Assembly: GCA_049322215.1 (NCBI GenBank)
Contig: JBMORU010000001.1
Location: forward strand, 194,327 to 258,326
Direction of reading: 5' to 3'
Length of the DNA stretch: 64,000 nt
Origin: Patescibacteria group bacterium
Lineage (GTDB): Bacteria > Patescibacteriota > WWE3 > UBA101185 > UBA10185
Under the pieces are notes generated by a model. That model saw only the letters and a list, made by a program, of their open reading frames with translations. It was not told the DNA's origin and did not search any database. Within the stretch, counting starts at the first letter, position 1; every line of letters starts with the position of its first letter. Positions 9,062 to 53,459 of the stretch are shown here, one piece after another. A program made the position numbers and the translations under genes.

Positions 9062-9067
9062 AAATAA

Positions 9068-11284: not shown

Positions 11285-11370
11285 TGGCGGAGGGTACAGG
11301 ATTCGAACCTGTGGACGAAAAAATCGTCACGGCTTAGCAAGCCGCTGCATTACCACTCTGCCAACCCTCC
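11285..11370 (-). tRNA. tRNA-Ser (anticodon GCU), 86 nt
   Basis: GGAGGGTTGGCAGAGTGGTAATGCAGCGGCTTGCTAAGCCGTGACGATTTTTTCGTCCACAGGTTCGAATCCTGTACCCTCCGCCA; anticodon loop UUGCUAA, extra-arm hairpin GACGA/TCGTC, encoded CCA. Confidence 0.8.
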
Positions 11371-27326: not shown

Positions 27327-27732
27327 TGGTGGAGATGAGGAGAATCGAACTCCTGTGTTGAAAGTAAAAACATTCAAGTGTACAAGCTTAGCTGGCCATT
27401 AAATTCAAAAAGACAGGTTGCCAACACACCCTAAACCTTTTCTAGACTTCAGCTAATAAAAGCCTTTACACTTTTTGCGTGTTTGGAGGTTAAGTCAGTC
27501 ACGCTTAACTACCGCATCCCGGTTAGTTTTGACCCAATAATCCATTCCGGGCAAAAGATTAAAGGATCTTCACCTTAAGTTAAAACTTAGGCAAATGCTC
27601 CAACCATTGCTGGTTGAGCTACTAGTACATCTTCGTCTGCACTTATTAACGGCTAGCATTTTTACGAACTTACTAGCAATTTCGGCTTGCTTGCAATGCT
27701 TTAACACTTACAGTCAAAGCCATTACATCCCC
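27327..27732 (-). ncRNA. ssrA: tmRNA (ssrA), about 406 nt
   Basis: 5' GGGGATGTAATGGCTTTGAC... and 3' ...CAGGAGTTCGATTCTCCTCATCTCCACCA form a tRNA-Ala-like acceptor with a G3-U70 wobble and encoded CCA; T-arm-like GGAGTTCGATTCTCC; sits 40 nt downstream of smpB; candidate tag ORF GCAGACGAAGATGTACTAGTAGCTCAACCAGCAATGGTTGGAGCATTTGCCTAA (ADEDVLVAQPAMVGAFA*). Confidence 0.8.
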
Positions 27733-33564: not shown

Positions 33565-34987
33565 TAGAAACATCGTCTAAATAAACGGTCTCCCAGTTTT
33601 TGCTAGTACGTAAGTAGGCAACAAGTGAAGAATTAGGTGTATGAATTATCCAATCAATGTTGTATTTCTCTAGTAAATCTAAATTATCTTTAGGAGATGT
33701 TTCTAAGTTTATATAATCTTCAAAAACCGACTCTCCGGTTTCGGTTCTCCACGAGGGCATGCGCCCATCAATAAATGTCTTGTGTGTTGGAAGTTGCCAA
33801 ATTAAAAAACCTCCCCACTGGTAATTGTTATACATATTTCCCGTTAGGGGAACTTCTTTCAAATAAGTGACAGCGTTATAAGGATAGTCTTTTTTTGCAG
33901 CCCAAACTCTTAGGTCTTTACTACCTGCCAAAACATCAGAATAGTTAAATATTCCATATAAAAACAAAAACCCAAAGAAAAACTTGATCACAAAAGATAG
34001 CTTTTTAGCAAAATACACACCTAACCTTCTAGCTAGCAAATTGTGCGCAAAGTAAAACATATCTAATAATGAAAAAACTGAAATAACCAAAAACAAACGA
34101 ATAAAGTATTGCGATCTAAGAGCTAACAAAGCGAAAAATACAGAAATAAGTAAATACCAGGTATTTTGTACACCTTTCTTTCTGTAAAAATTATAAAAAA
34201 CACATATTGAAATCATTAAATATAAAACAATTAAAACCAAATCCTTTGAAAAGCTTAAAGGGGTCCACTCACCAATATAAGTAAACTGAAAAGGATGTGT
34301 TTCTTTTAACAGGGTTAACCAAAGATTAATACCATAAGGATTTATAAAAGTAAGTAAAACGCCTAAGAATACAAAAAGCAAGTTAAAAACGTTTAATTTG
34401 CTAAAATTGCCTTTTTTCCAAAAAGCATAACTGTCAAATAAAACATAAGTTCCAAAAACAAATAGACCAAGTAAAAAATCGGCATGAACATTTGCCCAAA
34501 GCAAAAAAATCAATGGGGTTAAGAAAAAGTACTTTTGTTTGTAAAAAATTAAAAACATGATTAAAACCATTAACACTGTACTAAAACCCAACGGTCTTAC
34601 AGAAACATTAAATAAAGAAAGTAGCAAAAAATATAAAACGAGCACAAAAGATGAAATATACGTGGGATATGAACTCATAATATAAAAAATATAAGTAAAA
34701 GAGGCAGATATGATTAAACTAAAAACTAGGCTAATTAAAAAACTACCACCAAATGAAAAAAATAAGTGCATTAACACTTGTACCAACCAATAGGAATTTG
34801 CCCAATAATAATTTTGAAAAGTATAAGAAAATAAGTTATGTGACGGAACACTACCTGTTTCAGCTATTATTCTTCCAGATACTAAATGCCATCCAAAATC
34901 AGGGTCAAGAGGAAACTCAAGTAAAATAAATGTACCTAAAACAAATAATATGAAAAAGAATATCTTTTTATTCGCGTTTGAGTTCAT
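33542..34987 (-). CDS. polytopic membrane protein, possible GT-C-fold glycosyltransferase (GT39/ArnT-like)
   Basis: 481 aa, about 12 TM helices, early periplasmic loop DPDFGWHLVSGR; tentative. Confidence 0.35.
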   Translation of the reverse strand: MNSNANKKIFFFILFVLGTFILLEFPLDPDFGWHLVSGRIIAETGSVPSHNLFSYTFQNYYWANSYWLVQVLMHLFFSFGGSFLISLVFSLIISASFTYIFYIMSSYPTYISSFVLVLYFLLLSLFNVSVRPLGFSTVLMVLIMFLIFYKQKYFFLTPLIFLLWANVHADFLLGLFVFGTYVLFDSYAFWKKGNFSKLNVFNLLFVFLGVLLTFINPYGINLWLTLLKETHPFQFTYIGEWTPLSFSKDLVLIVLYLMISICVFYNFYRKKGVQNTWYLLISVFFALLALRSQYFIRLFLVISVFSLLDMFYFAHNLLARRLGVYFAKKLSFVIKFFFGFLFLYGIFNYSDVLAGSKDLRVWAAKKDYPYNAVTYLKEVPLTGNMYNNYQWGGFLIWQLPTHKTFIDGRMPSWRTETGESVFEDYINLETSPKDNLDLLEKYNIDWIIHTPNSSLVAYLRTSKNWETVYLDDVSIILVKKY

Positions 34988-36818
34988 ATAATCTGCTCTT
35001 TATAGCTATATAACCTGGGGCACGTAGATTAAACACTGTTTGAAATTCACTGCCATCTATGGAGACATCTCCTTTATCAGTTTTAAACGTTATTTTTGTA
35101 GTACGTCCGTTGTTGCCAATATCTACGTCGACATCACTAACTTTAGAATACTTGCCACCGTATTTATCAGCCTTTTCAGCCATTTCGTCCACAGAGTAAG
35201 GATCTCCTCCCCAGCAACTTGTTGTTACAGGGGTAATGTGTTTATCATCATCATTAGATCCTTTACGCCAAACTACCCAAGCATTTAAAATATCGGCCAT
35301 TTCTTTTTCATTTAGCCAAGGGGAAGATCTACCGCAGGAATCGCTATCGAACCTGGTTCCTTTTGTCCACCATGCCCAGTAAAACCACGGGGAACCTGCT
35401 TTTTTCTCGTACGCGTCTTTTGGCCAGCTACCACTTACATCCCAACCAACGCCATCATCTATATAGCCGCCTGTTGTAGAAGAATACATTGCGTGCGTAT
35501 CACCACCTATTATTTTTCCTTTAGTATCATCAACAGCTTTTTCCCATCGTTCTGGAGGATTATTAGCTTTACTCTTTAAAAACACCTGACAATTTTGGTT
35601 AGTACAAATAGATTTACCTGCTTTCACATAGCGATAAGCATATGTTCTTGCTGCAATAGCTTGTGCTTTTAGTGCATCTTCTGGCCAATCACTAGGCATT
35701 TCTGCAATTCCATATAAATAATACTGAAAGTCTAGTTCACCTTCACCATCAACTTTTACTTTACTTGGGAAATCGTCTGCTTTTTTAACATCATTTTTAT
35801 AATAAAACTTAATAATGTCTTCGTAGCTATCACCAGCTTCAGCACGACCTTTCGCGCCATACTGACTCATACCTCTATAGTGTGTATAAGCACCATAGCT
35901 AAAAGCTGCAAAGGCAGGGCTAAACGAAGGGCTAGGTACGCTCCAATCAGGAGATTCATAATCACCAACTGTTCCGTTTATATCTGCATTTTTTTGATTC
36001 AAAACCTCTTGCTGCTTGGCACTTAAACTTGCAATTTCTTCAGATAATGACTTTAACTCACCTTCATAGTCACCTTCTTTTTCTTCAATATTGCCCAACT
36101 CAGATTGAGCTAACACTTTTTCGCTGCTTAAGTTATCTCTAACTGCAAGTAAATTGGCCTGGGATTCTTCTAAATCTTGTTTTATTTCTTCGGCGGCTGC
36201 TTTATCTGTTTCAAAATTTGTAATTTCCGCATTTAAGATATCAATTAGCCTTAAAGCTTCCGAAGAAACCGCTTTATCAAACATGTAATTTACAGTGGCA
36301 TATTCAAAGCCATTTAAATTATTATTTTGCACATTTGCAGAAAGTATTATTTCTAAATCTGATAAAATTCCCTTTTGGTAATGAGACCTAATAACTTTAT
36401 TTCTTAATGCGGTTTTTTCTTCTAAGGATCCTCTTCTATCTGTCAAATTTTCCTCTATAACTGTTAATTCTTTAACTAAAGAATCTATACTTAGTTGGAG
36501 TGCATCGATTTCTGATTGTTTTATTGATAACTGGGAAGACAGAGTTGATATTTGCGAATTAACTGCATCTTTTTTATTTCTTAAATCGTTTAATTTAGAG
36601 CTTAATGATTGATATTCTTCTTCTTTTTCTTCCTTTTCTTCAGCATAACAAGCAGCTTTGTCGTCTAAATCACTAATGTTTTTACAAGGGTCTTCGGCAC
36701 TAACAGAAAAAGTAAACAAAACGAAAAATAGTGCTATGAAAACAATTAGGACTTGACTCTTAAAGGATGGGCACGGATAATTTTTACAAGACATACACTG
36801 GAAATTATAGCAAAACAA
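34968..36818 (-). CDS. SpoIID/LytB-domain protein with N-terminal signal/TM and long coiled-coil region
   Basis: C-terminal SpoIID-like motifs (GMSQYGAKGRAEAG, EALKAQAIAARTYAYRY); heptad-rich 60-300 region. Confidence 0.65.
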   Translation of the reverse strand: MFCYNFQCMSCKNYPCPSFKSQVLIVFIALFFVLFTFSVSAEDPCKNISDLDDKAACYAEEKEEKEEEYQSLSSKLNDLRNKKDAVNSQISTLSSQLSIKQSEIDALQLSIDSLVKELTVIEENLTDRRGSLEEKTALRNKVIRSHYQKGILSDLEIILSANVQNNNLNGFEYATVNYMFDKAVSSEALRLIDILNAEITNFETDKAAAEEIKQDLEESQANLLAVRDNLSSEKVLAQSELGNIEEKEGDYEGELKSLSEEIASLSAKQQEVLNQKNADINGTVGDYESPDWSVPSPSFSPAFAAFSYGAYTHYRGMSQYGAKGRAEAGDSYEDIIKFYYKNDVKKADDFPSKVKVDGEGELDFQYYLYGIAEMPSDWPEDALKAQAIAARTYAYRYVKAGKSICTNQNCQVFLKSKANNPPERWEKAVDDTKGKIIGGDTHAMYSSTTGGYIDDGVGWDVSGSWPKDAYEKKAGSPWFYWAWWTKGTRFDSDSCGRSSPWLNEKEMADILNAWVVWRKGSNDDDKHITPVTTSCWGGDPYSVDEMAEKADKYGGKYSKVSDVDVDIGNNGRTTKITFKTDKGDVSIDGSEFQTVFNLRAPGYIAIKSRLYELKRE

Positions 36819-37165
36819 TGCTTAAAACTATACGTAATAAAAAAACAATATTAGTTTCATTAGGTATTTACTATTTCAATACTCTATTACTTTTAATGCT
36901 TCCTCAACAAGCATATGCACAATGTACCGATCCTGATACATGCGATCTTGGCGATTTAATTAGATCGGTATATGATGTAGCACGCCCCCTAGCAATAATA
37001 TTTGGTTTTATAATGATATTGGTTGCGGGTTACAAAATAACTACAAGCCAAGGAGACCCTATGAAAGTAAAAGTAGCAAAAGAAGACATGTCTTCTGCTA
37101 TACTTGGTTTAATATTTGTGCTTATTGCTGTGGGATTTTTAAGAATGATACTAAATAATTTATAA
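36818..37165 (+). CDS. small secreted two-helix membrane protein, VirB2/TrbC-like pilin candidate (paralog 1 of 4)
   Basis: Signal peptide ending AYAQ; hydrophobic helix, conserved S/T-x-GDP-x-K-x-A core (SQGDPMKVKVA), second hydrophobic helix. ORF-track start 36767 trimmed to MLKTIRNKK. Confidence 0.45.
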   Translation: MLKTIRNKKTILVSLGIYYFNTLLLLMLPQQAYAQCTDPDTCDLGDLIRSVYDVARPLAIIFGFIMILVAGYKITTSQGDPMKVKVAKEDMSSAILGLIFVLIAVGFLRMILNNL

Positions 37166-37185
37166 AATAAAAGGAGGTGTAAAAA

Positions 37186-37518
37186 ATGATATTACAAGAT
37201 GTATATGCTCAAATACCAACCACGGTAGTACAACCTCAACCTTTAGGTGTTACTACTCTAGCTGATGCTTTTGGTATTGCGACCAACGTTATTTTAGGAG
37301 CAGGTGTAGCTTTAACAGTTATCTTCTTAATTTTAGGAGGTATAAAATACATGTCTGCTAAGGGAGATCAAAAGGCAGCTGTAGAAGCAAGAAGTGCTTT
37401 AACAAACGCAGTTATTGGATTTATCGTAGTTATTGGAGCTTTCACAATTAGAATTGTTGTAACTAGTGTTATCGGTGGTAATGAAAACGTTGCAATACAA
37501 GACGTTGTACCTAACTAA
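37186..37518 (+). CDS. VirB2/TrbC-like pilin candidate (paralog 2 of 4)
   Basis: AGGAGG RBS 9 nt upstream; same helix-KGDxKAA-helix architecture (MSAKGDQKAAVEA). Confidence 0.45.
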   Translation: MILQDVYAQIPTTVVQPQPLGVTTLADAFGIATNVILGAGVALTVIFLILGGIKYMSAKGDQKAAVEARSALTNAVIGFIVVIGAFTIRIVVTSVIGGNENVAIQDVVPN

Positions 37519-37591
37519 AGAAGACTTTTCGGGACCCTGGGAAACCAGGGTCTCATTCAACAGTTTTTAGTTTATTGAATTTAGGATTATC

Positions 37592-37909
37592 ATGGCAGTT
37601 TTTGCACAGTTTGATGAGCATTTGCCTTCGGGATGCGAAGGGTGTGATGCAATAGAAATAGGAGAAATATTAGCAGTAGGCGTAAACTTATTTATGGGTA
37701 TTGCTATTTCAATGTCAACCCTTGGAATGTTATATTCAGGGGTTAAATGGGTTATGTCAAAAGGAGACCCAAAAGCAGTTGCAAATGCCAGAACTTCTTT
37801 GGTTTATAGTATAATTGGTTTCATTTTAGGTATTGGAGCACTATCTTTGAAGGTAGTTGTATTCAACAATATTGGAGATCCAGGAATAGATGATGTACCA
37901 AACTTTTAA
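37592..37909 (+). CDS. VirB2/TrbC-like pilin candidate (paralog 3 of 4)
   Basis: Same architecture (MSKGDPKAVANA). Confidence 0.45.
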   Translation: MAVFAQFDEHLPSGCEGCDAIEIGEILAVGVNLFMGIAISMSTLGMLYSGVKWVMSKGDPKAVANARTSLVYSIIGFILGIGALSLKVVVFNNIGDPGIDDVPNF

Positions 37910-38333
37910 AAAAACTTTAATTACACTTGTTTTAACACTAACATTATTTGCAAATTTTAGTGGAGTTGCCTATGCACAAGATTGTGACATTGGTGATGAA
38001 CCTACCCCTGTACAAATTGTTTGCCCTTTGCAAAAAACTTTAGTAGTTATTTACTACAGCTCAGGAGCGTTTTTTTTAATAATGGTTTTTGTTACTTCTT
38101 ATAAATTCTCAACATCACAGGGTGATCCAAAGGCAATGCAGGCAGCAAAACAGTCTTTAACATATACAGTACTTGGATTTGTTTTAACTATAACTACTTT
38201 TGCAATAACGTTTTTTATAGGAAGACAATTTGACTCGCCTTCACTAGCCGATCCAAATAGTCCTTTTACAAGCTTAACTACAGGAATATGTAATATATTG
38301 CAGTTTGCTAATATAAGCGCTCCGGGCTGCTAA
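37890..38333 (+). CDS. VirB2/TrbC-like pilin candidate (paralog 4 of 4)
   Basis: Signal peptide ending AYAQ; STSQGDPKAMQAA core; C-terminal Cys-containing extension. Confidence 0.45.
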   Translation: MMYQTFKKTLITLVLTLTLFANFSGVAYAQDCDIGDEPTPVQIVCPLQKTLVVIYYSSGAFFLIMVFVTSYKFSTSQGDPKAMQAAKQSLTYTVLGFVLTITTFAITFFIGRQFDSPSLADPNSPFTSLTTGICNILQFANISAPGC

Positions 38334-38349: not shown

Positions 38350-38883
38350 CTAATAGGCTTCTAAAAATTCTCCGGGAGCAGGAGGAGTTGATATCCATAC
38401 GTAACGCACAGGCTCAACAAGCTTTTCTCCATTTGCACCTGTTAGTTCAACAGTAATTACGTACCTGGTATTTGGTTCCCATGGTTTACGTGGAAAAACT
38501 CTAACCTTAGAAGGATCTTCCTCAACAAGTACTTGAGCACCTAATTGAATATCAGGAGTTACAAAAATTTTTACAGAATCTTCTTTCACTGGAGCTGAAA
38601 ATGTCATGTGAATTATTTGAAATTCGTTATAAAAGTATTTATCTAAGTCATTTGCAGGAGGATCTACTTCTAATAAAAAGATTTCACCAACTTCTCCTGG
38701 CTGGGGTTTATCATCAATACCGGGAATACCTCCTGGTGTATCAGGTACCACAACCGGGTTTTGAGGAGTACGTGGCGCTGACGTGGGACGCAGAAAATAA
38801 TAAAGTATTACAAAACCTATTATTAAAACAAGAATTACAACTGCAGCTTTGTACTTTTTTAAACGCTCAATAAAGTTTTTCAT
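38350..38883 (-). CDS. hypothetical membrane-anchored protein with Pro-rich stalk (T4SS-locus associated)
   Basis: N-terminal TM AAVVILVLIIGFVILYYF, Pro-rich linker, about 100-aa C-terminal domain. Confidence 0.4.
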   Translation of the reverse strand: MKNFIERLKKYKAAVVILVLIIGFVILYYFLRPTSAPRTPQNPVVVPDTPGGIPGIDDKPQPGEVGEIFLLEVDPPANDLDKYFYNEFQIIHMTFSAPVKEDSVKIFVTPDIQLGAQVLVEEDPSKVRVFPRKPWEPNTRYVITVELTGANGEKLVEPVRYVWISTPPAPGEFLEAY

Positions 38884-38907: not shown

Positions 38908-41900
38908 TTAATCTTCTGGCCACCAAGAAGGTGCTCCTGGAGGCGTACCAGAACATAATCCTGAAGTTTCAGGTCTTACGGTACTACCACCTGCATCTTG
39001 AGCTTCTATATGAACGTGAGTATTGTTACCCCAGTTAAAAGTAGAGGAAAATGCTTCGCCAGGTAAATAGTCACCACCTTGAGCATTACCTAAATGCTGA
39101 ATTTTAATGGTCAGCCTTGGAGTACCATCTTGTGCAAACCCTTGCGCAGTAACAGCTTGTCCCAATGACAAACTGTAAGGCTCAGATACTGTCCAATAAG
39201 AAACATCCCCTGCAGAGGGTAAACAAACAGTTGAATCCTCTTGATAATCAACAGGGAATACATCCCATGCAAAACCAAATTCATTGCCTTGAGGTACAGT
39301 GCCATTATTGTAACAATAGTTATCTTGTGGAAAAGTACCTCCTCCGGTATCAGCATTTAAATTTGGTGCTCTTAAAGCAACACCAAGCGAAGGAATATAA
39401 GAATTACACAAAGTAATTGGTACTGCATCCCAATAAGTATTTGATCCATGACCACCTCCTGGATGTACAGCAGTGTCATTTCCTCGGTAAGAACCCACTG
39501 TAAAACCGTCTACATCTTTAAAAAAACAAAAGTTTTCGCAATATAGTTCTCCATAATTAACATCCCCCACAGGACCCCCTTCAACTTCTACATCACAGCC
39601 ACCGCCACAACCACCCACTTTTCTTGTAGGATCTATAGGAGAAATAGTAGTGAACATACCCATAATCACTATTATGGTTACTGCCATAACACCGGCCAAG
39701 GGCAAAGTACCTAAAGCTACCCATTTCATAAGTTTAATAAACATTGCTTCGGCACCACTTACTAATGAAGAAAAGTCTAAGTGAATTATTGCTTTACCTA
39801 CGGCTTCTAGAGCGTCAAGTATTTTTATAATCAAATACTGAATGGCAAGCTTTAAAGGAGTAGCAATACCCTCGGAAGCTACTAAAATAGCGTCGGTTAT
39901 TAATTCTGCAAGTATTTTCTTTAAATATTGTATTGGGGCTACAACTGCAGCTAGTTTTGTAAATGCTGCAGATTGTAAAACGTTAAGAGCTGAAGTTAAC
40001 TTTTGTAATGCACCACCATATTCCTCTGTAATTTTTAGTAAATTAATTTTGGAATTTCGCAAACTCAACTTTTGAATCAATTCATATAAAGCTGATTCGC
40101 TTAGCTGAATACCTTGTTTATCTAAAAAGGCACGAAGTTTTTGTATTTTGTCATACAATTCTTCAACTTTAACAGGAACAACTAGCTTCATGTCTTTAAG
40201 CATTTCGGCTAATTCTTCTACACTTTTAGCACCAAAAAGGCGTTGTAGGTTTTCTATTCCACCTTTTTCTCCTAATTTCAAAACTTCGTTTAGTAAATCT
40301 ATATCTTCAAAGTGTTTTCCTCCCTGAAGGGTTAAAGTTGTAACAACACCGTTTATAGTTACATCAACTTTTAGCTTATTTGAAAAAACACCAAGCTTCA
40401 TTAACTGTTGGAACGGAGCATACGCTAAGTCTTTATAATCTGAGTCATAAACTAAGCCGAAGCCATGTGTTCTCTTTATTAAGTATTCTTCAATTAACTT
40501 AGCTGGAGTAATTGGAAAGCGAATTTTAACCTTCATCCAAACTAAGTTGTTAAGAAATATTCCACTGCTTAGTTGTGACGAAATATCGCGGGCGGTTTCT
40601 CTTAAACGCATTACTTGAGCAATATCCATCCATGATGCAATTTTTGCACCACCTTCAATACCAAAAGAATTCAATATTTCTATAACGTAAGGAGCATCAG
40701 GCATTTTACTGCCCTTTAATAAACGCTCTTCCATTAAATATTTCAAAAAGGTGCGCTCTACACCATCACCAAAAAGAGATCCTTTACCTACAACGTCTGC
40801 AACTAAAGACCCACCTGAAAATCTATCTTTAAATACTTCTATTCTCGTAGCTAAAGTACGCAATGCAGCACCATCCCCTGCCATAGCAGCTTCTACTAAA
40901 GGGGTAAACCCTGTGTCGGTACGTTCATCAAAAATTGCTTTTCTAAAGTCATCAACAAAGTTATGTAAAGGTTTGACTGAATTTTCAAAAACCTCAACCA
41001 TTTCAGTCATGCCGCTTATAGTATCTTGCGCATAAGCACCACTTAAAGACGTAGCAAGCCCTTGTGCACTGGTTAGTTGTTTATCTAAAAGCTTCAATGC
41101 TGAATCTAAAGACGCTTCATTACCTTCACGTAAGGCTTTAGACACAGCCTTGTTAGCATTATTTATAGTTTTTCCAATACCACCTAAAGTAGTTGCTAGC
41201 TCAAACTCATCAATTGCAGTATTAATTGTGGTAGATATTTGAGCTAAATCCTCAGCACTATTTAATAAAGGATTGCTACCTAATAATGAGTCAGATAATA
41301 CCTTAACTTTCTTTCCATCAATTGTTCTTTCTACAAAATGGGTATTTTTAATCTCTTCTAAATGAGCCTTGTATATGTCAGCACCTTTTTGTGCAACCCC
41401 TATATAACTGGAATCTCTTGCTGTAGGACTTCTTTTATCGTTAACGAATTTACCAAAAGCAGTAGTAAATTCTTCGTACATATTTATATTTTTATCTACT
41501 TCTGCTACCGAAGAAGCCTGACCTTTCACATACCCTGAATAATCATAAAGTTTTTCTACACGATTAACTGTTTCATCGGCTAAAGATAAATCTTTACCCA
41601 TACGTTGTTGTAACAAGTCTTTTGCAGTATCAAAGCCGAAACCAAGCTTACCTTTACCATTCATCATGGCAACAAACATGTCTCTTTCAGCACGCAAATC
41701 CATGTCGGAATAACTGAAAAACTCAGTGCCCATACTTTTAACAAAGCTAGAAACACCTTTTTGAGGTTGAGTTACCATTTTATGTAAATCAACCTTTAAC
41801 GAAGTTACACCGGCAAGTTCTTCTTCATCTCCCGAAGCTTGAACATCGACCATGTCAAATTTTCTTGGGGCTCCGGTTACACGCAAAGATCTTTTAGCAT

Positions 41901-42111
41901 CGGCAACCATGTTGTTATATACAAATGTAATTGGAGTAGCAGGTAACTTATAAGCTTCTGAAATTTTATCAAAGGCTGCATCAATATCAGCATCTAAATC
42001 TTCGTAGATGCTGAAGTCACTTTCATAAGGTCTTGAATAGAATCTACCTTGTGCAGGTATCTTTCTATCGCCCGGATAGTATCCGATATTAAACGGGTTA
42101 CCACTTGCCAT
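38908..42111 (-). CDS. large (1067 aa) membrane protein with C-terminal extracytoplasmic M23-like peptidase domain (putative T4SS-associated cell-wall hydrolase)
   Basis: About 800-aa cytoplasmic helical region, TM block at about aa 790-830, then Cys/Gly-rich domain with AVHPGGGHGS and THVHIEAQDAGG, resembling the M23/LytM H-x(n)-D and HxH zinc motifs. Confidence 0.45.
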   Translation of the reverse strand: MASGNPFNIGYYPGDRKIPAQGRFYSRPYESDFSIYEDLDADIDAAFDKISEAYKLPATPITFVYNNMVADAKRSLRVTGAPRKFDMVDVQASGDEEELAGVTSLKVDLHKMVTQPQKGVSSFVKSMGTEFFSYSDMDLRAERDMFVAMMNGKGKLGFGFDTAKDLLQQRMGKDLSLADETVNRVEKLYDYSGYVKGQASSVAEVDKNINMYEEFTTAFGKFVNDKRSPTARDSSYIGVAQKGADIYKAHLEEIKNTHFVERTIDGKKVKVLSDSLLGSNPLLNSAEDLAQISTTINTAIDEFELATTLGGIGKTINNANKAVSKALREGNEASLDSALKLLDKQLTSAQGLATSLSGAYAQDTISGMTEMVEVFENSVKPLHNFVDDFRKAIFDERTDTGFTPLVEAAMAGDGAALRTLATRIEVFKDRFSGGSLVADVVGKGSLFGDGVERTFLKYLMEERLLKGSKMPDAPYVIEILNSFGIEGGAKIASWMDIAQVMRLRETARDISSQLSSGIFLNNLVWMKVKIRFPITPAKLIEEYLIKRTHGFGLVYDSDYKDLAYAPFQQLMKLGVFSNKLKVDVTINGVVTTLTLQGGKHFEDIDLLNEVLKLGEKGGIENLQRLFGAKSVEELAEMLKDMKLVVPVKVEELYDKIQKLRAFLDKQGIQLSESALYELIQKLSLRNSKINLLKITEEYGGALQKLTSALNVLQSAAFTKLAAVVAPIQYLKKILAELITDAILVASEGIATPLKLAIQYLIIKILDALEAVGKAIIHLDFSSLVSGAEAMFIKLMKWVALGTLPLAGVMAVTIIVIMGMFTTISPIDPTRKVGGCGGGCDVEVEGGPVGDVNYGELYCENFCFFKDVDGFTVGSYRGNDTAVHPGGGHGSNTYWDAVPITLCNSYIPSLGVALRAPNLNADTGGGTFPQDNYCYNNGTVPQGNEFGFAWDVFPVDYQEDSTVCLPSAGDVSYWTVSEPYSLSLGQAVTAQGFAQDGTPRLTIKIQHLGNAQGGDYLPGEAFSSTFNWGNNTHVHIEAQDAGGSTVRPETSGLCSGTPPGAPSWWPED

Positions 42112-42227: not shown

Positions 42228-43610
42228 ATGACAAAGAGACTCTTAACCACAACATTTATAACATTACTAATAACAGGTGTTTTCGTTCTTGTGCCTAGAA
42301 ATGTTTTTGCGCAAGATTCTTGTAATATTGGAGAGGTTAATGGATGTACATTTACACCCGCTCCAGATGGAAATGCAGAAAAATGTTTATTCGAAGGTGA
42401 AAGAGCAAACCATCCCCTTTTAGACATTAGAAGAACAATGAAAAATTCTATAGTTTCTTTACTTGTAGACACTGGTACAAGTGTTGCAACAGGTAGAAGT
42501 TTAAATCAAATCATTGATTGTATTGGACAGGAATATGCAAACATTTGTAATGCAGGTTCTGATCAAGATTATTGGAATGCCGTTGGTGAACAATGTGGTT
42601 TTTCAGTCATCCCTGGTTCTAATGCTGCAGCCAGAGCACGCGGTAGTTTGGCAGGTATTACTTACACAGTAGGTAGTGCTATGAGTGCAGATCATCCTAT
42701 TCCCACAAACTTAGCTCATTATTTTAGATATCAAGTAAGAAACGTACCTGTATTGGGCGATAGAGTTTACGCTCAAGTAGATTACAATATTTTAGGAGCA
42801 GACTTTATACTACAGTTATGGCAAGTGTTTAGAAACGTCGCTTACGGAATATTAGCAATAGTAATGATAGTAATAGGTGTAATGATTATGGTACGCAAAA
42901 AAATCAGCCCTCAGGTAATTGTAACCGTACAAAACGCCTTACCAAGAGTAGTGCTAGGTGTATTGCTTATTACATTTAGTTACCCAATAGGTGCTACAGG
43001 AGCTGCTTTAATTTGGCCATTAAGAACCGTAGTAGACGGGATAATGAATGATCTTGGAGCAGGCTTTGCAGTTTCCGAAGCAGGATTTGGTGCAATTGTA
43101 ATGTTAATAATCACAGCTGTAATAGCAGGTATGTTTTTTGGAGGCCCTATAGGAGTAATGGCAATTGGGCTATCTGCTGTATCTTTGACAATAATGGTAA
43201 TGTTAATATGGATAATAATTCTATTAATTGCCTTAATGAAAACAATAACCGTGTACGTAAGAATATTAATGATGATAGTGTTTGCTCCCGTTCAATTTGC
43301 AATAGGTACTGTGCCGGGCAATGAGAAAATGATTAAGGATTGGTTTAAGTTATTAGCTGCAAGAATAGTAGCCATACCCGCAATGTATTTTATGATTTCA
43401 TTAGCAGGATTCATAATTAATCAATCACTAAACGCAGGTTTTGATCCAGCAGCATCTCCAGCAGGAAGTGAGTTACTAGCTTGGTTAGAAGCATCAGGAC
43501 AAACAGCAGTTATAATGTTATTCGTTCCATTCTTGTCCATTTACTTACTAATAACAGCCGTAGGTATGCCTAAGAAAATAGAAAAGTTATTCATGGGCAT
43601 CAAGAGATAA
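42228..43610 (+). CDS. VirB6/TrbL-like polytopic membrane protein
   Basis: Signal peptide, about 180-aa extracytoplasmic N-domain, then 5-6 TM helices rich in Gly/Ile/Met; position in locus consistent with VirB6. Confidence 0.4.
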   Translation: MTKRLLTTTFITLLITGVFVLVPRNVFAQDSCNIGEVNGCTFTPAPDGNAEKCLFEGERANHPLLDIRRTMKNSIVSLLVDTGTSVATGRSLNQIIDCIGQEYANICNAGSDQDYWNAVGEQCGFSVIPGSNAAARARGSLAGITYTVGSAMSADHPIPTNLAHYFRYQVRNVPVLGDRVYAQVDYNILGADFILQLWQVFRNVAYGILAIVMIVIGVMIMVRKKISPQVIVTVQNALPRVVLGVLLITFSYPIGATGAALIWPLRTVVDGIMNDLGAGFAVSEAGFGAIVMLIITAVIAGMFFGGPIGVMAIGLSAVSLTIMVMLIWIIILLIALMKTITVYVRILMMIVFAPVQFAIGTVPGNEKMIKDWFKLLAARIVAIPAMYFMISLAGFIINQSLNAGFDPAASPAGSELLAWLEASGQTAVIMLFVPFLSIYLLITAVGMPKKIEKLFMGIKR

Positions 43611-43679: not shown

Positions 43680-45776
43680 ATGGCTTTAAAAGACACACAA
43701 AAAGTAAATAAACAGCACGCAGTACCACAAAATATAATGGATGTGGAATTTAAAATAATTGGTGAATTAACTATGCGCCAATTTTTTTACCTTCTTATTT
43801 TTGGGGGAATTGGATATGGAGCATTTACACTTATCAGTAATTCTTTAATTAAATGGCCAATAATTTTGGCTTCAGCAGCATGTGGTTTACTGTTAGCATT
43901 TGTACCAGTGCAAGAACGAAGCATAGACGAATGGGTGGTTAACTTCTTAAGGGCTATATACAGAACCAATCAAATGATTTGGCGAAAAGATCCTACAATT
44001 CCAACCGCCTTCCTATACCAAAGTCTGGATGTAGTAAGACAGGAATTAATTACATTAGCACCTACTTCTAGTAGAAGAAAATTAGAAGAGTATCTGCAAT
44101 TTAAAGATGAACCCAAAGTTAGTGACGATCTTGATATTCCAGAAATTGATTTTATACAAAAAGTACATCAGGCATTTGCATACGATGCTAAACAAACAAA
44201 GAAAGCACAAAGTAGCATTAAAACAACACAATTTAACACACAAGTCACACAGCAAGTACAGGCACCGCCTCAGATAACTACTACGACACAACAACCAATA
44301 GCTATGCCAAAGCAACAAGTGACACCACCTGCCGAAATACCTAATCAATCAGCACCAAAAATTAACCCACATCCTACAATTGTACAGGAGTCTCCTGTAA
44401 CACCATCTAAAAAAGAAACTATATCTCCTATAGAAGTACAACCTGACACTTCATCTAAAAATGACACCGAAAATAAGCAAAATACTAGAGATATGCTTAA
44501 TAAGACCGAGCAACAACCACAAGCACGTACTGTAATCAAGCCTCCAGAATTGCCAAAAAGAGAGACGAAAAATCAAGAACTAAGTAAACCAACTCCTCCG
44601 CAGTTTAATATAGCCAAAAAGCCAGAACCAGAATTACAGCAACAACCTCAATTTAAGCCAGAGCTACCAAAATTTGAAGTATCAAAAGAAACAAATGAGC
44701 CTTCAACACCAAAGGTAGCTACAGAAAAGGAGGAAACACAAGACACTATTAACAGAGTCACACCAGCACCAGCACCAGCACCAGCACCAGCACCAGCACC
44801 AGCACGGCAAGAGGCACCTCCCCAACCTCCAGAGCTAGAGTTGCCAGACATTGAAACGGGACAGGATTTAACACTTGTGCCTATTACTCCCAACAGGCAT
44901 ACTGGAAGAAGATTCACTAGCTTATTACCAACTCAAGGTGAGATATTATTACCCATACGCGGAGAAAGAGTTTTAAAAACCACAGAAGAAGCTAATATAG
45001 AAAATGAAATAGCTGAAAAAGCTAAGCAACTAAGACTAATGATTGAACAAATAAAACAAGACGAAAAATTCAGATCTACTATAACTAAATTTCAAACTGC
45101 TAAGCCTTTGCAGGAAGATGGTTATAAACTACCAAAGATAGAAACAGCAGAACACGAAGCACAGCTAAATAAAGAAGCAAAAGAAGTTATAGAAACAGTA
45201 GAAGAAGAAAATACAAGATTAACAAAAGAAATAGAACAATTAAAAACAGATTTGGAAACCACAAATAAACCACAAGAAGCGCAAGAAAAGAAAGAAGAAT
45301 TAACCAAGTTAGAACAAGAAAAAGCCGAGGTATTAAAAAACTACGAAGCATTAAAGCAAAAAGTACAAGAACTAGAAGAAAAACTAGAAAAAAAACAAGG
45401 CGAACTGCCTAAAATAATAGTTCAAAAAGTTTACGATAACGGAGGCACCGACACACAACCAACAACTAACCCTACAATAGCTCAAATACAACCACTAACA
45501 AATGCGCCTAACATTATATCTGGCGTAGTAAAAAGCACCAATGGTGAAACATTAAGTGGAGTTGTAGTAATAATAAAAAACCAAAAAAATGAACCAGCAA
45601 GGGCGCTAAAAACAAATGCATTAGGACAATTTTCGATAACTACACCTTTATCTAATGGTACCTATATTATTGAAGTAGACAAGTTTAATAAAACTAATTT
45701 AAGCTTTGATATAATAAGCATTGAAGCTAAAGGAGAGGTTCTTCCACCTTTGGAATTTGTAGGAAAACCAGTTTAG
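43680..45776 (+). CDS. VirB3-like membrane module fused to a long Pro/Gln/Glu-rich linker, coiled coil and C-terminal CarboxypepD_reg-like beta-sandwich domain
   Basis: N-terminal about 100 aa with two TM helices (FFYLLIFGGIGYGAFTLI; WPIILASAACGLLLAFV), like VirB3/PrgI; (PA)8 repeat; EQLKTDLE... coiled coil; C-terminal ISGVVKSTNGETLSGVVVIIKN. Confidence 0.4.
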   Translation: MALKDTQKVNKQHAVPQNIMDVEFKIIGELTMRQFFYLLIFGGIGYGAFTLISNSLIKWPIILASAACGLLLAFVPVQERSIDEWVVNFLRAIYRTNQMIWRKDPTIPTAFLYQSLDVVRQELITLAPTSSRRKLEEYLQFKDEPKVSDDLDIPEIDFIQKVHQAFAYDAKQTKKAQSSIKTTQFNTQVTQQVQAPPQITTTTQQPIAMPKQQVTPPAEIPNQSAPKINPHPTIVQESPVTPSKKETISPIEVQPDTSSKNDTENKQNTRDMLNKTEQQPQARTVIKPPELPKRETKNQELSKPTPPQFNIAKKPEPELQQQPQFKPELPKFEVSKETNEPSTPKVATEKEETQDTINRVTPAPAPAPAPAPAPARQEAPPQPPELELPDIETGQDLTLVPITPNRHTGRRFTSLLPTQGEILLPIRGERVLKTTEEANIENEIAEKAKQLRLMIEQIKQDEKFRSTITKFQTAKPLQEDGYKLPKIETAEHEAQLNKEAKEVIETVEEENTRLTKEIEQLKTDLETTNKPQEAQEKKEELTKLEQEKAEVLKNYEALKQKVQELEEKLEKKQGELPKIIVQKVYDNGGTDTQPTTNPTIAQIQPLTNAPNIISGVVKSTNGETLSGVVVIIKNQKNEPARALKTNALGQFSITTPLSNGTYIIEVDKFNKTNLSFDIISIEAKGEVLPPLEFVGKPV
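44759..44806 (+). repeat. hexanucleotide microsatellite (CACCAG/CCAGCA) x about 7.5 encoding (Pro-Ala)8
   Basis: caccagcaccagcaccagcaccagcaccagcaccagcaccag read directly in the sequence. Confidence 0.85.
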
Positions 45777-45777
45777 T

Positions 45778-46482
45778 ATGGCAGCACAAAGTGTAAAAGC
45801 AACAACTCAAGATCATTTAGACATAGAAGATATTAAAGATAACTTCGTTGTGTTGAAAAATGGAACAGTATGTTCTGTATTGCAAACTACAGCAGTAAAT
45901 TTTGATCTTCTATCTGAAATCGAGCAAGATGCTATTATTGCAGCATTTTCTATGTTATTAAACTCAATAACATTTCCTGTTCAGGTTGTTATTAGATCAA
46001 AAAAACTGGATATAACAAAATATATAGAAAAAGTCATAAAGGTAGAAAATAAACTTACAGATCCGCTAATTAAAAGACAGGCAGAATCTTACAGAAAATT
46101 TGTACAAGAAATTATTCAAAAAAATGAGGTTTTAGATAAACAATTTTATGTTGCAGTACCCGCAGGTGACAACATGATTACAGAAGTAGGATCTAATCCG
46201 TTCGACTTTTTAACCAAGTTGTTTGGAGCTCAATCAAAAAGAGTCAATGTTAATGTAGATGCAGCAATAAGTGGCGCACAGGCAAAATTAATGCCAAAAG
46301 TAGATCACATAGTTAATGAGTTTAATAGAATTGGAGTAAAAACTAGGCAATTAACTACACACGAACTGGTAGAATTATATTTCGATATATATAATCCAGC
46401 ATCTGTGCACGGGCAGAAAATAAGAACAGATATAGAAGATTATAAAACAGCTATAGTAGAACCAGCTATATTTGCAGAATAA
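45778..46482 (+). CDS. hypothetical protein resembling a VirB4 N-terminal domain
   Basis: DHLDIEDIKDNFVVLKNGTVCSVLQTTAVNFDLLSEIEQDAIIAAFSMLLNSITFPVQVVI follows the layout that opens VirB4/TraE N-domains; starts 1 nt after the upstream stop. Confidence 0.4.
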   Translation: MAAQSVKATTQDHLDIEDIKDNFVVLKNGTVCSVLQTTAVNFDLLSEIEQDAIIAAFSMLLNSITFPVQVVIRSKKLDITKYIEKVIKVENKLTDPLIKRQAESYRKFVQEIIQKNEVLDKQFYVAVPAGDNMITEVGSNPFDFLTKLFGAQSKRVNVNVDAAISGAQAKLMPKVDHIVNEFNRIGVKTRQLTTHELVELYFDIYNPASVHGQKIRTDIEDYKTAIVEPAIFAE

Positions 46483-48706
46483 AAATACTATGAAATTGTT
46501 TGGCAAGAAAAAACAACAAAATGCGAATACTGAAAATCAAACCCTAGCGCAAAATCAAGCAGGGGCTCAAAAAGTAAATGCAGCACCTCCAATAACAACA
46601 CCAGAAACAAGAGCAAAGAAAAACAAAAATAAAAACGAAGAAAAACCTGCCGAAATGTTGGCTAGAGGAATGGTTAATATCAAAGATATAGTAGCACCAC
46701 CTGCTATCGAGGTGGATTTTAACCATATAAAAATTGGGAATAACTTTTACAGAACATTATTTATTTCAGGATACCCTAGATTTGTAGGCGCAAACTGGTT
46801 ATCTCCAATAATTAATTTTGAACATACTTTAGACATTTCATTTTTTTACTATCCTGTGAAATCAAAAGGTGTTTTAGATGACTTAAGAAGAAAAATAACG
46901 GAAATGGAAGCTACAATGCATTCTGATGAAGATAGAGGTAAAATAGCCGACCCTGGTGTAAAAATAGCATTAGACGATGCAAAAACTTTACAGGAACAAC
47001 TAGTAAAAGGTGTTGAAAAATTTTTCCAGTTTTCCTTTTATATAACTATTAGAGCAAATTCCATGGAAGAATTGGAAAATGCTGCCAGTAAATTAGAATC
47101 AACATTGGGATCACTATTATTAATATCAAAATCAGCAACTTTACAAATGGAGGAAGCTTTTCAATCTACAGTACCTGTAGCCCTAGATAAACTATTAATA
47201 ACTAGAAACATGGATACAACTAGTTTAGCCACTACATTTCCTTTTACATCGTCAGATTTAACATCTGACGATGGAATAATGTACGGACTTAACAAGCACA
47301 ACGGTTCTTTAATTATTTTTGACAGATTCTCTCTTGAAAATGCAAATACAGTAGTATTTGCTAAATCCGGTTCAGGTAAATCGTATTTTGTGAAATTAGA
47401 AGCACTTCGTTTAATAGCATTTGGTGCAGAAATTATTATTATTGACCCCGAAGCAGAATATAAACCAATCGCTGAGGTTATTGGTGGAGATTTTATAAGT
47501 TTTTCTTCTACTTCACCGGATAGAATAAATCCATTTGACCTTTCAGGTATTGCTACAGAAGGGGAAAATGAATTAGGTCAAAAGATTTTATCTTTACACA
47601 CGCTATTTAAACTTGTACTAGGAGATTTAACACCCATTGAAGAAGCTATATTAGACAGAGCACTAATTGAAACATACAGAATAAAAGGAATTACAACAGA
47701 TCCAGATACACAAAGAACAAAAGAACCTCCTGTAATGGAAGATTTATACAAGGTACTTTTAGGTGCAGAAGAACCAGAAGCAAGAAGCATGTCAGAAAGG
47801 TTAGAAAAATATATTAGAGGCTCTCTAGCAGGAATTTTTGACCAACAATCTACATTAAGAATAGACAATAGAATGACTGTATTTTCTACACAAAATTTAG
47901 AAGATGCTTTAAGACCAATTGCTTTTTACATTATTTTAGACTTCGTTTGGACGAAAGTTAAAAAAAGCTTAAAGAAAAGAATTTTAATAGTAGAAGAGGC
48001 TTGGTACTTGTTACAAAACGAAGACAGCGCACGCTTTATTTATGGTATAGCAAAAAGAGCCAGAAAATATTACTTAGGTTTAACAACGATTACTCAAGAC
48101 GTAGATGACTTTTTAGCCTCAGATTATGGAAAAGTCATTGTTACAAATTCATCTATCCAAGTGCTTTTAAAACAGCACCCTGCAGGAATTGATAGACTAG
48201 CTGATACATTTTACCTATCTGAGGGAGAAAAGCGTTTACTGCTCGCTGCAGAACGCGGAGAAGGACTATTTTTCGCTGGAGCTAATCACGTAGCCATTAA
48301 AATCATGGCTTCCGAAGAGGAACACAACTTAATTACTACAAACCCTGAAGAAATTTTAAGAATGAAGGAACAACGAGAACAAGCTCAATTACAAGCGGCA
48401 CAACCACAACCAGGAAGTACAGATAAAAAGTATGAAAGATTTGAAAGATTAGACCCAAATAGATACACTACAAACCCAAATGATTCAACACGTCCTGCAC
48501 AAGCACCAAATCCTATGAGCAGCCCTATGCAACCTGGGCCTTTGCCAAATCAAAACCCAATAGTACAACCAACAATGCCTATGCAATCACCGCAACCCAC
48601 ACAAACTCCAACACCGCCACAAAACAACGCTGAAACAGTAAGTTTAAATACTGAAGACCCACAGGATAATACAGGAACAATTTCGCTTTCAAATAATCAA
48701 GTTTAA
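46472..48706 (+). CDS. VirB4/TraE-family type IV secretion ATPase with Gln/Pro-rich C-terminal tail
   Basis: Walker A VVFAKSGSGKS, IIIDPEAEYKP and Walker B-like RILIVEEAWYL segments typical of VirB4; N-domain YRTLFISGYPRFV; last about 110 aa low complexity (QAQLQAAQPQPGS...PQPTQTPTPP). Confidence 0.75.
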   Translation: MQNKNTMKLFGKKKQQNANTENQTLAQNQAGAQKVNAAPPITTPETRAKKNKNKNEEKPAEMLARGMVNIKDIVAPPAIEVDFNHIKIGNNFYRTLFISGYPRFVGANWLSPIINFEHTLDISFFYYPVKSKGVLDDLRRKITEMEATMHSDEDRGKIADPGVKIALDDAKTLQEQLVKGVEKFFQFSFYITIRANSMEELENAASKLESTLGSLLLISKSATLQMEEAFQSTVPVALDKLLITRNMDTTSLATTFPFTSSDLTSDDGIMYGLNKHNGSLIIFDRFSLENANTVVFAKSGSGKSYFVKLEALRLIAFGAEIIIIDPEAEYKPIAEVIGGDFISFSSTSPDRINPFDLSGIATEGENELGQKILSLHTLFKLVLGDLTPIEEAILDRALIETYRIKGITTDPDTQRTKEPPVMEDLYKVLLGAEEPEARSMSERLEKYIRGSLAGIFDQQSTLRIDNRMTVFSTQNLEDALRPIAFYIILDFVWTKVKKSLKKRILIVEEAWYLLQNEDSARFIYGIAKRARKYYLGLTTITQDVDDFLASDYGKVIVTNSSIQVLLKQHPAGIDRLADTFYLSEGEKRLLLAAERGEGLFFAGANHVAIKIMASEEEHNLITTNPEEILRMKEQREQAQLQAAQPQPGSTDKKYERFERLDPNRYTTNPNDSTRPAQAPNPMSSPMQPGPLPNQNPIVQPTMPMQSPQPTQTPTPPQNNAETVSLNTEDPQDNTGTISLSNNQV

Positions 48707-52076: not shown

Positions 52077-53459
52077 ATGCCTAATACATTAAATGAAAAA
52101 AAATTATGGGATGCAGTACTAGCAGAGTTGCAATTGACTCTGTCTGAACTAAACTACCAAACCTGGGTAGCTAACACCAAAGCAAGAAATTTAACTAACT
52201 CATCTGTAGAAGTTATTTGTCCATCACCTTTTGTTAAAGACAGATTACAAAAAAGTTTATTTTCCTTAATACAAAACAGCGTAAATAAAATAGGAAAAGG
52301 TGAATACGAAATATTTTTTAAAGTTGGAGATACACAGGATAAAAAAGAAACTAGCTTAAATATAGGTCCGCTTTTTGAAACCAGTGCTACTAACGACACA
52401 AATGCAAAATCTGCAGGATTATCTCCAAAATTCACATTTGATAACTACGTAATGGGCTCTAACAATAGACTTGCCTTTGCCATAGCCACAGCTGTGGCCG
52501 AAAACCCCGGAAAAGCATACAATCCTTTTTTCATATATTCTGGAGTTGGTTTAGGAAAAACACACTTAATGCAGGCAATTGGTAATAAAATTTTGCAAGA
52601 TAATCCAAAATCTAAAGTTATTTACGCAACAGGAGAAGCTTTTATGAATGAAATGATAGAGGCAATTCAAAGTGGCAGAGGTAAAGGTAGATACAACACA
52701 AACCAATTTAGAAACAAGTATAGAAATGCCGATGTATTGCTAATTGATGATGTTCAATTTATTGCAGGAAAAGAAACCACACAAGAAGAATTCTTCCACA
52801 CATTTAATACTTTATATTTAGCTCAAAAGCAAATAGTCTTAACGTCTGATAGACCTCCAAAAGACTTCACAGATTTAGAAGACAGAATTACTTCAAGATT
52901 TAGTAGCGGAATAATTGCAGATATTCAAACTCCCGACATAGATACTAGAATCGCAATTCTCAGAAAAAAACGCACAGACACACATGACAGCATTAATGAT
53001 GACACAATAAACTTTATTGCAGAAAAAATAAATACAAATATAAGGGAGCTTGAAGGTGCTTACCTACAAGTATTAACTTATGCAAAAGCTATTGGAGAAA
53101 GCCCCGAAATACAAATTGCAGCAGAGGCTTTAGGACAATCTATTAAGGAAGAAAAAAGAAAACCAATTAATATTAACCAAATAATTAAAACAGTATGCAA
53201 CTATTATTCTATTAGGCTTACAGACATTAAAGGTAAAAGACGAACAAAAAATATAGTACTTCCTAGACAAGTAGCTATGTACTTAATACATAACATGACC
53301 GAAACTCCATATATGAGTATTGGAGAAATTTTAGGAGGAAGAGACCATACAACAATTATGCATGGAGTTAGAAAGGTAGAAGAAGAAGTTGAGTTTGAAG
53401 GTAAACTAAAACAAGATATAAACAATATTAAACATGCATTGTTGATAGCAGACAAATAA
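52077..53459 (+). CDS. dnaA: chromosomal replication initiator DnaA
   Basis: Walker [16 protein letters not shown], Walker [26 protein letters not shown]-terminal DNA-binding domain ([13 protein letters not shown]). Confidence 0.9.

Follow-up and report, generated by a model that had tools for sequence, protein, structure and literature searches.

A long-form PrgI/VirB3-family protein with a conserved, tethered module in an origin-proximal type IV secretion locus of Patescibacteria

The gene at 43680..45776 on the plus strand of a 64,000-nt chromosomal stretch of about 35% G+C from a Patescibacteria group bacterium (contig JBMORU010000001.1, positions 194,327 to 258,326; the whole stretch is called the window and all positions refer to it) encodes a variant, not a typical member, of the PrgI/VirB3 family of type IV secretion system (T4SS) subunits. 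It was called a variant because its 698 amino acids (aa) exceed the small size of the family. An N-terminal PrgI/VirB3 membrane module is joined through a long disordered tether to a C-terminal module made of an Arg-rich linear motif, a coiled coil and a beta-sandwich. This architecture is conserved among relatives, the C-terminal module occurs in nature both fused to PrgI and as a gene of its own, and no export signals were found on it. We read the protein as the VirB3/PrgI subunit of the origin-proximal chromosomal T4SS of Patescibacteria, kept in its long form across the lineage, which would anchor the ATPase and hold a tethered, most likely cytoplasmic accessory module. A probability of about 0.6 was assigned to this reading as a whole.

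Identification and domain organization of the PrgI/VirB3 protein

The ATG start of the 698-aa open reading frame (ORF) lined up with the first residue of 39 homologues in a 40-sequence alignment, here called alignment A1. Residues 15-93 of the N-terminal region scored 45.9 bits (E 8.6e-12) with the Pfam family PrgI (PF12666), whose gathering cut-off is 27, as a preliminary description of the window had led one to expect. Members of this family are small (10-15 kDa, with short extensions only), whereas the window protein has 698 aa, and the PrgI-bearing relatives retrieved have a median length of 557 aa and a maximum of 1074 aa. It has been reported that VirB3 proteins have two transmembrane (TM) helices and short cytoplasmic ends within 10-15 kDa, and that PrgI of plasmid pCF10 has 117 aa (PMC12857230). 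Compared with this canonical form, the window protein is about six times as large and has about 530 extra residues containing three conserved elements. No database record of the exact 698-aa protein was found. The features of the gene were as follows.

43680..45776, plus strand: long-form PrgI/VirB3 subunit, 698 aa (ORF list, Pfam, start alignment with 39 homologues)
43722..43958, plus strand: Pfam PrgI (PF12666) match, aa 15-93 (45.9 bits)
43713..43778, plus strand: nearly invariant amphipathic helix, aa 12-33, consensus QHAVPQNIMDVEFKLIGDLTMRQ (invariant columns, alignment A1)
43782..43916, plus strand: TM hairpin, TM1 aa 35-53 and TM2 aa 55-79, with a loop of about 6 residues (hydropathy scan, AlphaFold2)
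43959..44174, plus strand: family-specific conserved block, aa 94-165, W.K...P.AF...VVKQELITLAPTSSRRKLEEYL...LDIPE (invariant columns)
44175..44876, plus strand: hypervariable disordered tether, aa 166-399, rich in P/Q/T/K/E (model confidence below 50)
44877..44981, plus strand: Arg-rich linear motif, aa 400-434, P.TP[DN]RH.GR.F..LLP..GEIILPIRGERVLK, net charge +4 (alignment A1)
44982..45404, plus strand: helix aa 435-472, short linker and Glu/Lys coiled coil aa 489-575 (AlphaFold2, heptad scan, PDB profile)
45507..45773, plus strand: seven-stranded beta-sandwich, aa 610-698, CarboxypepD_reg/transthyretin-like/CnaB-like (Pfam, AlphaFold2, Foldseek)

The preliminary description, which was made from the letters alone, had proposed a PrgI/VirB3 module, a Pro-rich spacer with an in-frame microsatellite, a coiled coil and a CarboxypepD_reg-like beta-sandwich, and this domain order was borne out. 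The amphipathic helix was placed by AlphaFold2 (AF2) within a helix of aa 19-51, and by analogy with a published comparison it would correspond in position to alpha1 of VirB3 (PMC9259494). The two hairpin helices in the model (aa 19-51 and 58-74) have predicted local distance difference test (pLDDT) values of 85-93. In the block of aa 94-165 the residues T125, L126, P128, T129, S131, R132, R133, L135 and E136 are invariant in alignment A1, and the segment 'LITLAPTSSRRKLEEYL...LDIPE' is the family-specific part of the N-terminal conserved block (aa 1-165). This block may provide a cytoplasmic interface for TrsD and VirB4, which are encoded directly downstream. The N-terminal part was covered by nearly every one of the 120 best database homologues (aa 21-160 in 120 of 120; 114-120 of 120 over aa 1-160), while only 5-25 of them aligned across the tether, whose composition is 17% P, 12% Q and 12% T.

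The Arg-rich motif ('LPIRGER'), which is also written P.TPDRHSGR.F..LLP..GEIILPIRGERVLK, contains the invariant residues G409, R410, L424 and P425. It was modelled mostly with low confidence (pLDDT below 50 for aa 328-407, 409-417 and 423-432). Since the motif is conserved and yet has low AF2 confidence, the model suggests that it might fold on meeting a binding partner. Behind it, long Glu/Lys helices were modelled at aa 435-472, 489-527 and 531-575 with a pLDDT of about 85-90, the heptad scan marked aa 431-471, 494-530 and 535-573, and profile matches in the PDB were coiled coils only. In alignment A1 a second variable linker separates the helix of aa 435-472 from the coiled coil.

The search of the C-terminal domain called for by the preliminary description returned PF13620 at aa 613-670 with a marginal 33.2 bits against a cut-off of 32.3, and most homologues carry a precomputed match to the same family. 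When the domain was modelled alone, AF2 gave seven strands at a pLDDT of 90.6. Foldseek related it to the transthyretin-like domains of carboxypeptidases N and D, to CnaB2 and to the B domains of SdrD (E about 1e-4, template-modelling score 0.6-0.69), with 2nsm, 3mn8 and 8bdw at E values of 1e-4 to 4e-4 and scores of 0.64-0.66. The same fold class was also found by Foldseek in cytoplasmic enzymes, namely intradiol dioxygenases and the small subunit of pyrogallol transhydroxylase, so the compartment cannot be read from the fold.

Distribution of the architecture

The 120 best database homologues are 439-749 aa long and nearly all of them carry both PF12666 and PF13620; the top homologue shows 51% identity across 42% of the query. 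Relatives are encoded in 120 species genomes, mostly labelled WWE3, and many other records bear the generic labels 'uncultured Candidatus Saccharibacteria' or 'Patescibacteria group'. A HMMER scan with the C-terminal module (aa 395-698) was run against 1.84 billion representative proteins (50%-identity clusters) and retrieved 1422 clusters at E<=1e-3 and 812 at E<=1e-10. At least 111 of the 150 best matches have a PrgI-type hydrophobic hairpin at the start and the module at the C-terminus, the rest being mostly fragments. Even among divergent matches (E about 1e-20), seven of the ten scanned begin with PrgI and the other three are standalone modules. The parts conserved throughout are the PrgI block, the 'LPIRGER' motif, the coiled coil and the beta-sandwich, whereas the first linker is hypervariable. 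Judged from these sequence comparisons, the PrgI-module fusion is old and common.

An assembly or annotation artefact that joins two genes could also give a long ORF, considering that two separate genes do occur in some lineages and that the linker often breaks assemblies. This explanation has a negligible chance of being correct: the ORF in the window is uninterrupted by a stop, two contigs of the Logan assembly SRR32167788 agree with both flanks of the repeat in the tether without a single mismatch, and the fused form with the same block order was found in more than 100 independent genomes.

The source databases annotate the relatives merely as 'PrgI family protein' or 'hypothetical protein', and no description of the PrgI extension was found in the literature searched. 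The window protein is thus one member of a large existing family, and what the literature searched does not describe is the architecture of the family, a VirB3 protein with a conserved tethered module which sometimes has its own gene.

The module as a separate gene

In at least three lineages the module is encoded by its own gene, with products of 531 aa (P0219), 588 aa (P0226) and 400 aa (P0182). Each of these genes lies directly 3' of a PrgI gene of 209-250 aa and directly 5' of TrsD and VirB4, and the arrangement of P0226 is present in NCBI, ENA, JGI and Logan assemblies. At the junction of the two genes, a TAA stop is followed immediately by ATG at locus L085, where the genes abut; locus L084 has a TAG stop and an 8-bp out-of-frame overlap, and locus L089 has a 4-bp overlap. 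Read-through of a recoded UGA (genetic code 25) was considered as the origin of the split genes and was ruled out by the TAA and TAG stops and by the one frame-changing junction. Another candidate, locus L056 of a related genome, was rejected as a split gene, the apparent break being a run of N that falls exactly within a (TP)n tract of the linker. The orthologue there (8791-10923) would measure about 970 aa, of which its coiled coil takes up about 330.

Most short matches to the module were fragments beginning at internal residues and not standalone proteins. About a dozen full-length standalone proteins remained among the 150 best representatives, and three of these were confirmed through genomic context; the context of P0150 was ambiguous. 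These standalone proteins have neither an N-terminal hydrophobic segment fit for a signal peptide nor a TM helix. BLASTP of the window module against P0219 aligned the coiled coil and beta-sandwich (the C-terminal 183 aa, 37% identity, E 3e-25), and the 'LPIRGER' motif aligned separately (E 6e-6). The standalone P0219, P0226 and P0182 share with the window protein the motif, a Pro-rich linker, the coiled coil and the beta-sandwich, as well as the position between PrgI and TrsD; they differ in being separate genes with extra N-terminal residues and no covalent link to the membrane anchor. The break point of the split lies inside the Pro-rich linker. As far as sequences can tell, the module is an independent unit without Sec targeting. 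Since the splits break in the linker and the standalone modules lack a signal, the linker is probably merely a tether and the module cytoplasmic; this is the strongest evidence of the present analysis.

Two further observations were made on the split lineages. Some standalone modules start with the signature 'YPGK(P/N)L(A/S)HR(F/Y)', which is absent from the fused form, and in L084-L086 the genes that follow VirB4 are recF, dnaN and dnaA on the opposite strand, not dnaN-KhpB-YidC.

Membrane topology and the side of the module

The only TM segments found by the hydropathy scan of the window protein are those of the hairpin (aa 35-53 and 55-79), with none later. In a lenient scan of about 200 homologues a later hydrophobic stretch was seen in nine, mostly inside the C-terminal domain, and a stricter scan of 230 proteins found no TM segment between the hairpin and the C-terminal domain. 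K+R residues number 3.3 on average ahead of TM1 and 4.8 over the 30 aa behind TM2, but only 1.05 in the hairpin itself, which fits the positive-inside rule for an N-in/C-in topology. In the reported R388 structure, VirB3 with its two TM helices is wrapped around the N-domain of VirB4 on the cytoplasmic side (PMC9259494). In VirB3-VirB4 fusions and in the SCO6880 family the C-terminus of a VirB3-like hairpin runs into a cytoplasmic domain, which shows that VirB3 has its C-terminus on the cytoplasmic side; weak matches to the SCO6880 family (NCBIfam), in which a VirB3-like N-terminus and a VirB4-N-like C-terminus are joined in a single protein, were also recorded. Unlike in such fusions, the fused part of the window protein is not VirB4, and VirB4 and the N-domain-like TrsD are separate genes. 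No VirB3-VirB4 fusions occur in Patescibacteria according to the literature (PMC12102498).

The tether and module are most likely on the cytoplasmic side, because the standalone modules have no signal or TM helix and because of the two-helix hairpin and the charge distribution. The preliminary description had taken the extension for a surface stalk and had asked for a topology prediction. Hydropathy and charge predicted the C-terminus to be inside and gave no support to the surface placement; the hairpin has two helices only, the positive-inside pattern is that of a C-terminus inside, and both the VirB3 precedent and the signal-less standalone modules agree with this.

An extracellular, TonB-like stalk that shows the beta-sandwich at the surface, with (PA)n tuning its length between strains, was nevertheless weighed. 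It would account for a fold like that of CnaB and the carboxypeptidase regulatory domains of surface proteins, for a Pro-rich spacer of very variable length, for a repeat that is perfect and therefore young, and for the lack of a recognizable VirB8-like gene in the locus. However, TonB-like proteins have an N-in/C-out orientation with a single anchor or signal before the Pro-rich spacer, whereas two TM helices precede the spacer here. An even number of TM segments flanked according to the positive-inside rule, like the precedent of VirB3, puts the C-terminus on the cytoplasmic side, and the standalone modules lack a signal peptide and a TM helix. Moreover, the shortest tethers of 47 aa are apparently too short to cross the envelope, and one repeat unit is only 2 aa in a tether of 244 aa. 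The surface stalk is thus unlikely. It would be possible only if the hairpin prediction were wrong, which is equally unlikely, or if export were Sec-independent, which is less likely still.

A related explanation is that the T4SS itself exports the module, which would pass through the VirB6 channel still attached to VirB3, or be set free in the split lineages, to serve as an external stalk, tip, plug or adhesin element in contact with the host bacterium. An extracellular-type fold without an export signal, the place of the module in the T4SS operon whether fused or split, and the long disordered tether, which suits threading, would all be compatible with this. But no T4SS subunit is known to thread in such a manner, each machine has about six copies of VirB3 and one channel (PMC9259494), and neither a coiled coil nor a folded beta-sandwich lends itself to translocation; self-export was regarded as highly improbable. 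If true, the module would be a surface element that the T4SS of Patescibacteria threads by itself, independently of Sec.

Several points weigh against a cytoplasmic VirB3 subunit of the kind preferred here. A sequence search of the N-terminal 110 aa against solved structures gave nothing meaningful and no VirB3 match. Along the same lines, the family profile matched only coiled coils among PDB sequences, which were treated as noise for the VirB3 identity, and Foldseek with the full-length model matched only the beta-sandwich and left the VirB3 hairpin unmatched. The N-in/C-in topology was deduced from hydropathy, charge bias, AF2 and homology. Proteins with the beta-sandwich fold are mostly extracellular (carboxypeptidase regulatory domains, CnaB pilin and adhesin stalks), Pro-rich spacers are reminiscent of TonB-like envelope-spanning proteins, and no VirB8-like wall-spanning component was recognized in the locus, a gap that an external role would fill. 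The function proposed for the module below is also wholly a matter of deduction.

The tether and its microsatellite

44761..44805, plus strand: perfect (CACCAG)x7.5 microsatellite encoding T-(PA)7 (Tandem Repeats Finder score 90, 100% matches)

The tether contains the only strong microsatellite of the 64-kb window, where the other repeats have about 2 copies and scores of at most 61. The preliminary description had noted a CACCAG x7.5 repeat at 44759-44806 encoding (PA)8. The repeat is indeed perfect and in frame, but Tandem Repeats Finder gave its extent as 44761-44805, and the codons ACA (CCA GCA)x7 CGG (nt 44763-44804) encode T-(PA)7-R with the dipeptides at aa 362-375. All seven units are spelled with the same two codons, CCA GCA, a pattern that speaks for recent slippage rather than for a Pro-Ala peptide having been selected. 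We take (PA)7 for a young product of replication slippage in a weakly constrained tether.

Linker lengths were measured between common sequence anchors in 143 relatives. The first linker ranges from 47 to 256 aa with a median of 121, and the 244 aa of the window protein are the second longest, while the beta-sandwich stays at about 87 aa. The length variation expected by the preliminary description was therefore found between species, though not for a stalk at the surface. Dipeptide repeats (KP, PA, TP, QP, KE) of 3-4 units occur in the linker of 12 relatives, and the (PA)7 of the window is the longest.

A second strain was represented by the Logan assembly ERR15087771, which differs from the window by 18 mismatches in 3302 nt. 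Three Logan contigs from this assembly and SRR32167788 all end 29-30 nt into the repeat, owing to the k-mer limit of the assembler, so that at least 5 units are present in two strains. A single-protein scan of GTDB genomes and a scan of JGI metagenomes yielded no close relative, and exact matches to the neighbouring genes were limited to Logan contigs. The two strains differ at four positions of the N-terminal domain and at eight of the VirB6-like gene, none of which alters an amino acid; the sole two non-synonymous changes, I311V and E351K, are both in the linker. These differences are few but agree with the linker being under relaxed constraint. Linker repeats interrupt assemblies both in the species of the window and in that of L056.

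The unit of 6 nt is a multiple of 3 and keeps the frame, which makes on/off frameshifting impossible, and one unit adds or removes 2 aa of a disordered tether of about 240 aa; a change in copy number is expected to be nearly neutral. The alternative that the microsatellite is a contingency locus, with slippage in a host-interaction gene giving adaptive heterogeneity, draws on its being the lone strong simple-sequence repeat in 64 kb, on the homology of the gene to one essential for epibiotic growth in a related lineage, and on the recurrence of dipeptide tracts in the linker of other species. With a 6-nt unit there can be no frameshift switching, however, the tract is in the least constrained part of the protein, and the two strains share its site, each having at least 5 units. 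Such a role was considered improbable. The microsatellite is of minor importance and mainly explains the assembly breaks at the PrgI gene.

The T4SS locus

36767..38333, plus strand: four tandem VirB2-like T4SS pilin genes (PF18895, 34.6, 32.7, 28.7 and 25.7 bits, cut-off 26.6)
42228..43610, plus strand: polytopic membrane protein in the VirB6 position, 460 aa (hydropathy: signal/anchor segment and at least 6 TM segments)
45778..46482, plus strand: TrsD/TraC-like protein, 234 aa, resembling the N-terminal domain of VirB4 (NCBIfam)
46472..48706, plus strand: VirB4-family ATPase, 744 aa (NCBIfam conju_CD1110, 380.8 bits, cut-off 325; Pfam P-loop_TraG, 93.7 bits)

The gene order in the window is pilins, VirB6-like, PrgI, TrsD and VirB4, followed by dnaN, KhpB (Jag) and YidC on the minus strand and dnaA on the plus strand (52077-53459), 3.4 kb from virB4. 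It has been reported that the T4SS of Patescibacteria consists of VirB4, TrsD, PrgI, VirB6 and VirB2-like pilins near dnaA, with the relaxase and the type IV coupling protein mostly absent (PMC12102498, PMC10633639). The window locus has all of these components, VirB6-like protein included, near dnaA. The window ORFs that were scanned, a part of the total, included neither a relaxase nor a coupling protein.

The 460-aa protein had no Pfam or NCBIfam match, and its position, conserved in relatives, and its topology suggest that it is VirB6-like. The 234-aa protein matched the NCBIfam models TrsD (E 4.1e-10) and VirB4_plasma (E 3.1e-12), both under the curated cut-offs, and PF26593 (TraC-like) is recorded for an identical product. 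Most of 80 related loci taken from GTDB genomes have the order PrgI-TrsD-VirB4, usually with dnaN-KhpB-YidC behind it; a VirB6-like gene was detected upstream of PrgI in 18 of the 80.

Some other observations were made in the locus. The TTG start of VirB4 overlaps the TrsD stop by 11 nt, and another gene caller begins 18 nt downstream, giving 738 aa; low-complexity Q/P/N-rich tails lie at both ends of VirB4 (about aa 1-55 and 620-744). TrsD and VirB4 are 70-75% identical to those of related loci, which are mostly labelled WWE3, against 52-55% for DnaN and 54-63% for DnaA, so that the secretion ATPase is more conserved than core replication proteins. The four pilins (132, 110, 105 and 147 aa) are divergent in sequence, each with a Sec-type leader and the common motif 'S.GDPK..A', and the array resembles the one reported for Ca. 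Southlakia epibionticum.

Two minus-strand genes of unknown function (38350-38883 and 38908-42111, described next) lie between the pilin array and the gene of the 460-aa membrane protein. The array is flanked by a 616-aa protein with a SpoIID domain and an N-terminal region that looks coiled-coil-like by eye (34968-36818, minus strand) and by a 177-aa membrane-anchored Big_5-like protein (38350-38883, minus strand), possible partners of the T4SS in peptidoglycan remodelling or in the envelope. A 1067-aa ORF (38908-42111, minus strand), transcribed in the divergent direction from the VirB6-like gene, has one hydrophobic segment (aa 796-827) followed by a Cys/Gly-rich tail of about 240 aa; it gave no Pfam or NCBIfam match, has no signal peptide and was detectable in just 8 of the 80 related loci. 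Elsewhere in the window there are a tmRNA gene (27327-27732, minus strand; Rfam RF00023, 110.8 bits) and three tRNA genes, all on the minus strand (2890-2977, 10518-10590 and 11288-11370).

Comparison with known systems and proposed role

PrgI of Enterococcus pCF10 and TrwM, the VirB3 of R388, resemble the window protein in the Pfam PrgI domain, in the amphipathic helix and two-helix hairpin, in the place of the gene between VirB6-like and VirB4 genes, and in a presumed anchoring of VirB4. Genetic data have been reported for Ca. Southlakia epibionticum (Saccharimonadia), whose T4SS is essential for epibiotic growth. Its PrgI family protein SEML1_0010, which has 300 aa with PrgI at aa 5-90, is itself essential for epibiotic growth (PMC10633639). 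SEML1_0010 belongs to the same Patescibacteria-type T4SS locus as the PrgI of the window, but no beta-sandwich module was reported for it, whereas the window protein adds the motif, the coiled coil and the CarboxypepD_reg module. The layout of an anchor, a spacer or coiled coil and a globular end domain is also seen in TonB, the b subunit of F-type ATPase and FliH/SctL. This likeness is analogous only, and no homology of the window protein to any of the three was detected. TonB has Pro-rich dipeptide repeats like those of the tether, but it has one TM helix and is periplasmic.

From these comparisons the following mechanism is proposed. The N-terminal 165 aa (amphipathic helix, hairpin and cytoplasmic block) would do the job of VirB3, that is, hold the VirB4 ATPase, present here as two proteins, TrsD and VirB4, at the membrane beside the VirB6-like channel protein. 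The disordered Pro-rich tether, of arbitrary length, would covalently retain a separable accessory module. In this module the Arg-rich motif probably docks on a partner, the coiled coil probably oligomerizes the roughly six copies per machine around the ATPase ring, and the transthyretin/CnaB-like beta-sandwich probably binds a protein or ligand. Placed at the ATPase complex or next to it, the module could then serve as a scaffold or stator or, alternatively, as an arm that brings in substrates. We infer the docking to TrsD/VirB4, the oligomerization and the recruiting role from the features described above, and a role as stator or recruiter, suggested by analogy, is speculation. A substrate-recruiting arm could matter because these T4SSs are mostly without a coupling protein.

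The T4SS is essential for epibiotic growth in the one genetically studied Patescibacterium, and it mostly operates without a coupling protein and relaxase. The module of motif, coiled coil and beta-sandwich is widespread, conserved and always encoded between the VirB3 and ATPase genes, whether fused or free. It is a specific candidate, open to testing, for a component still lacking in the picture of this secretion system.

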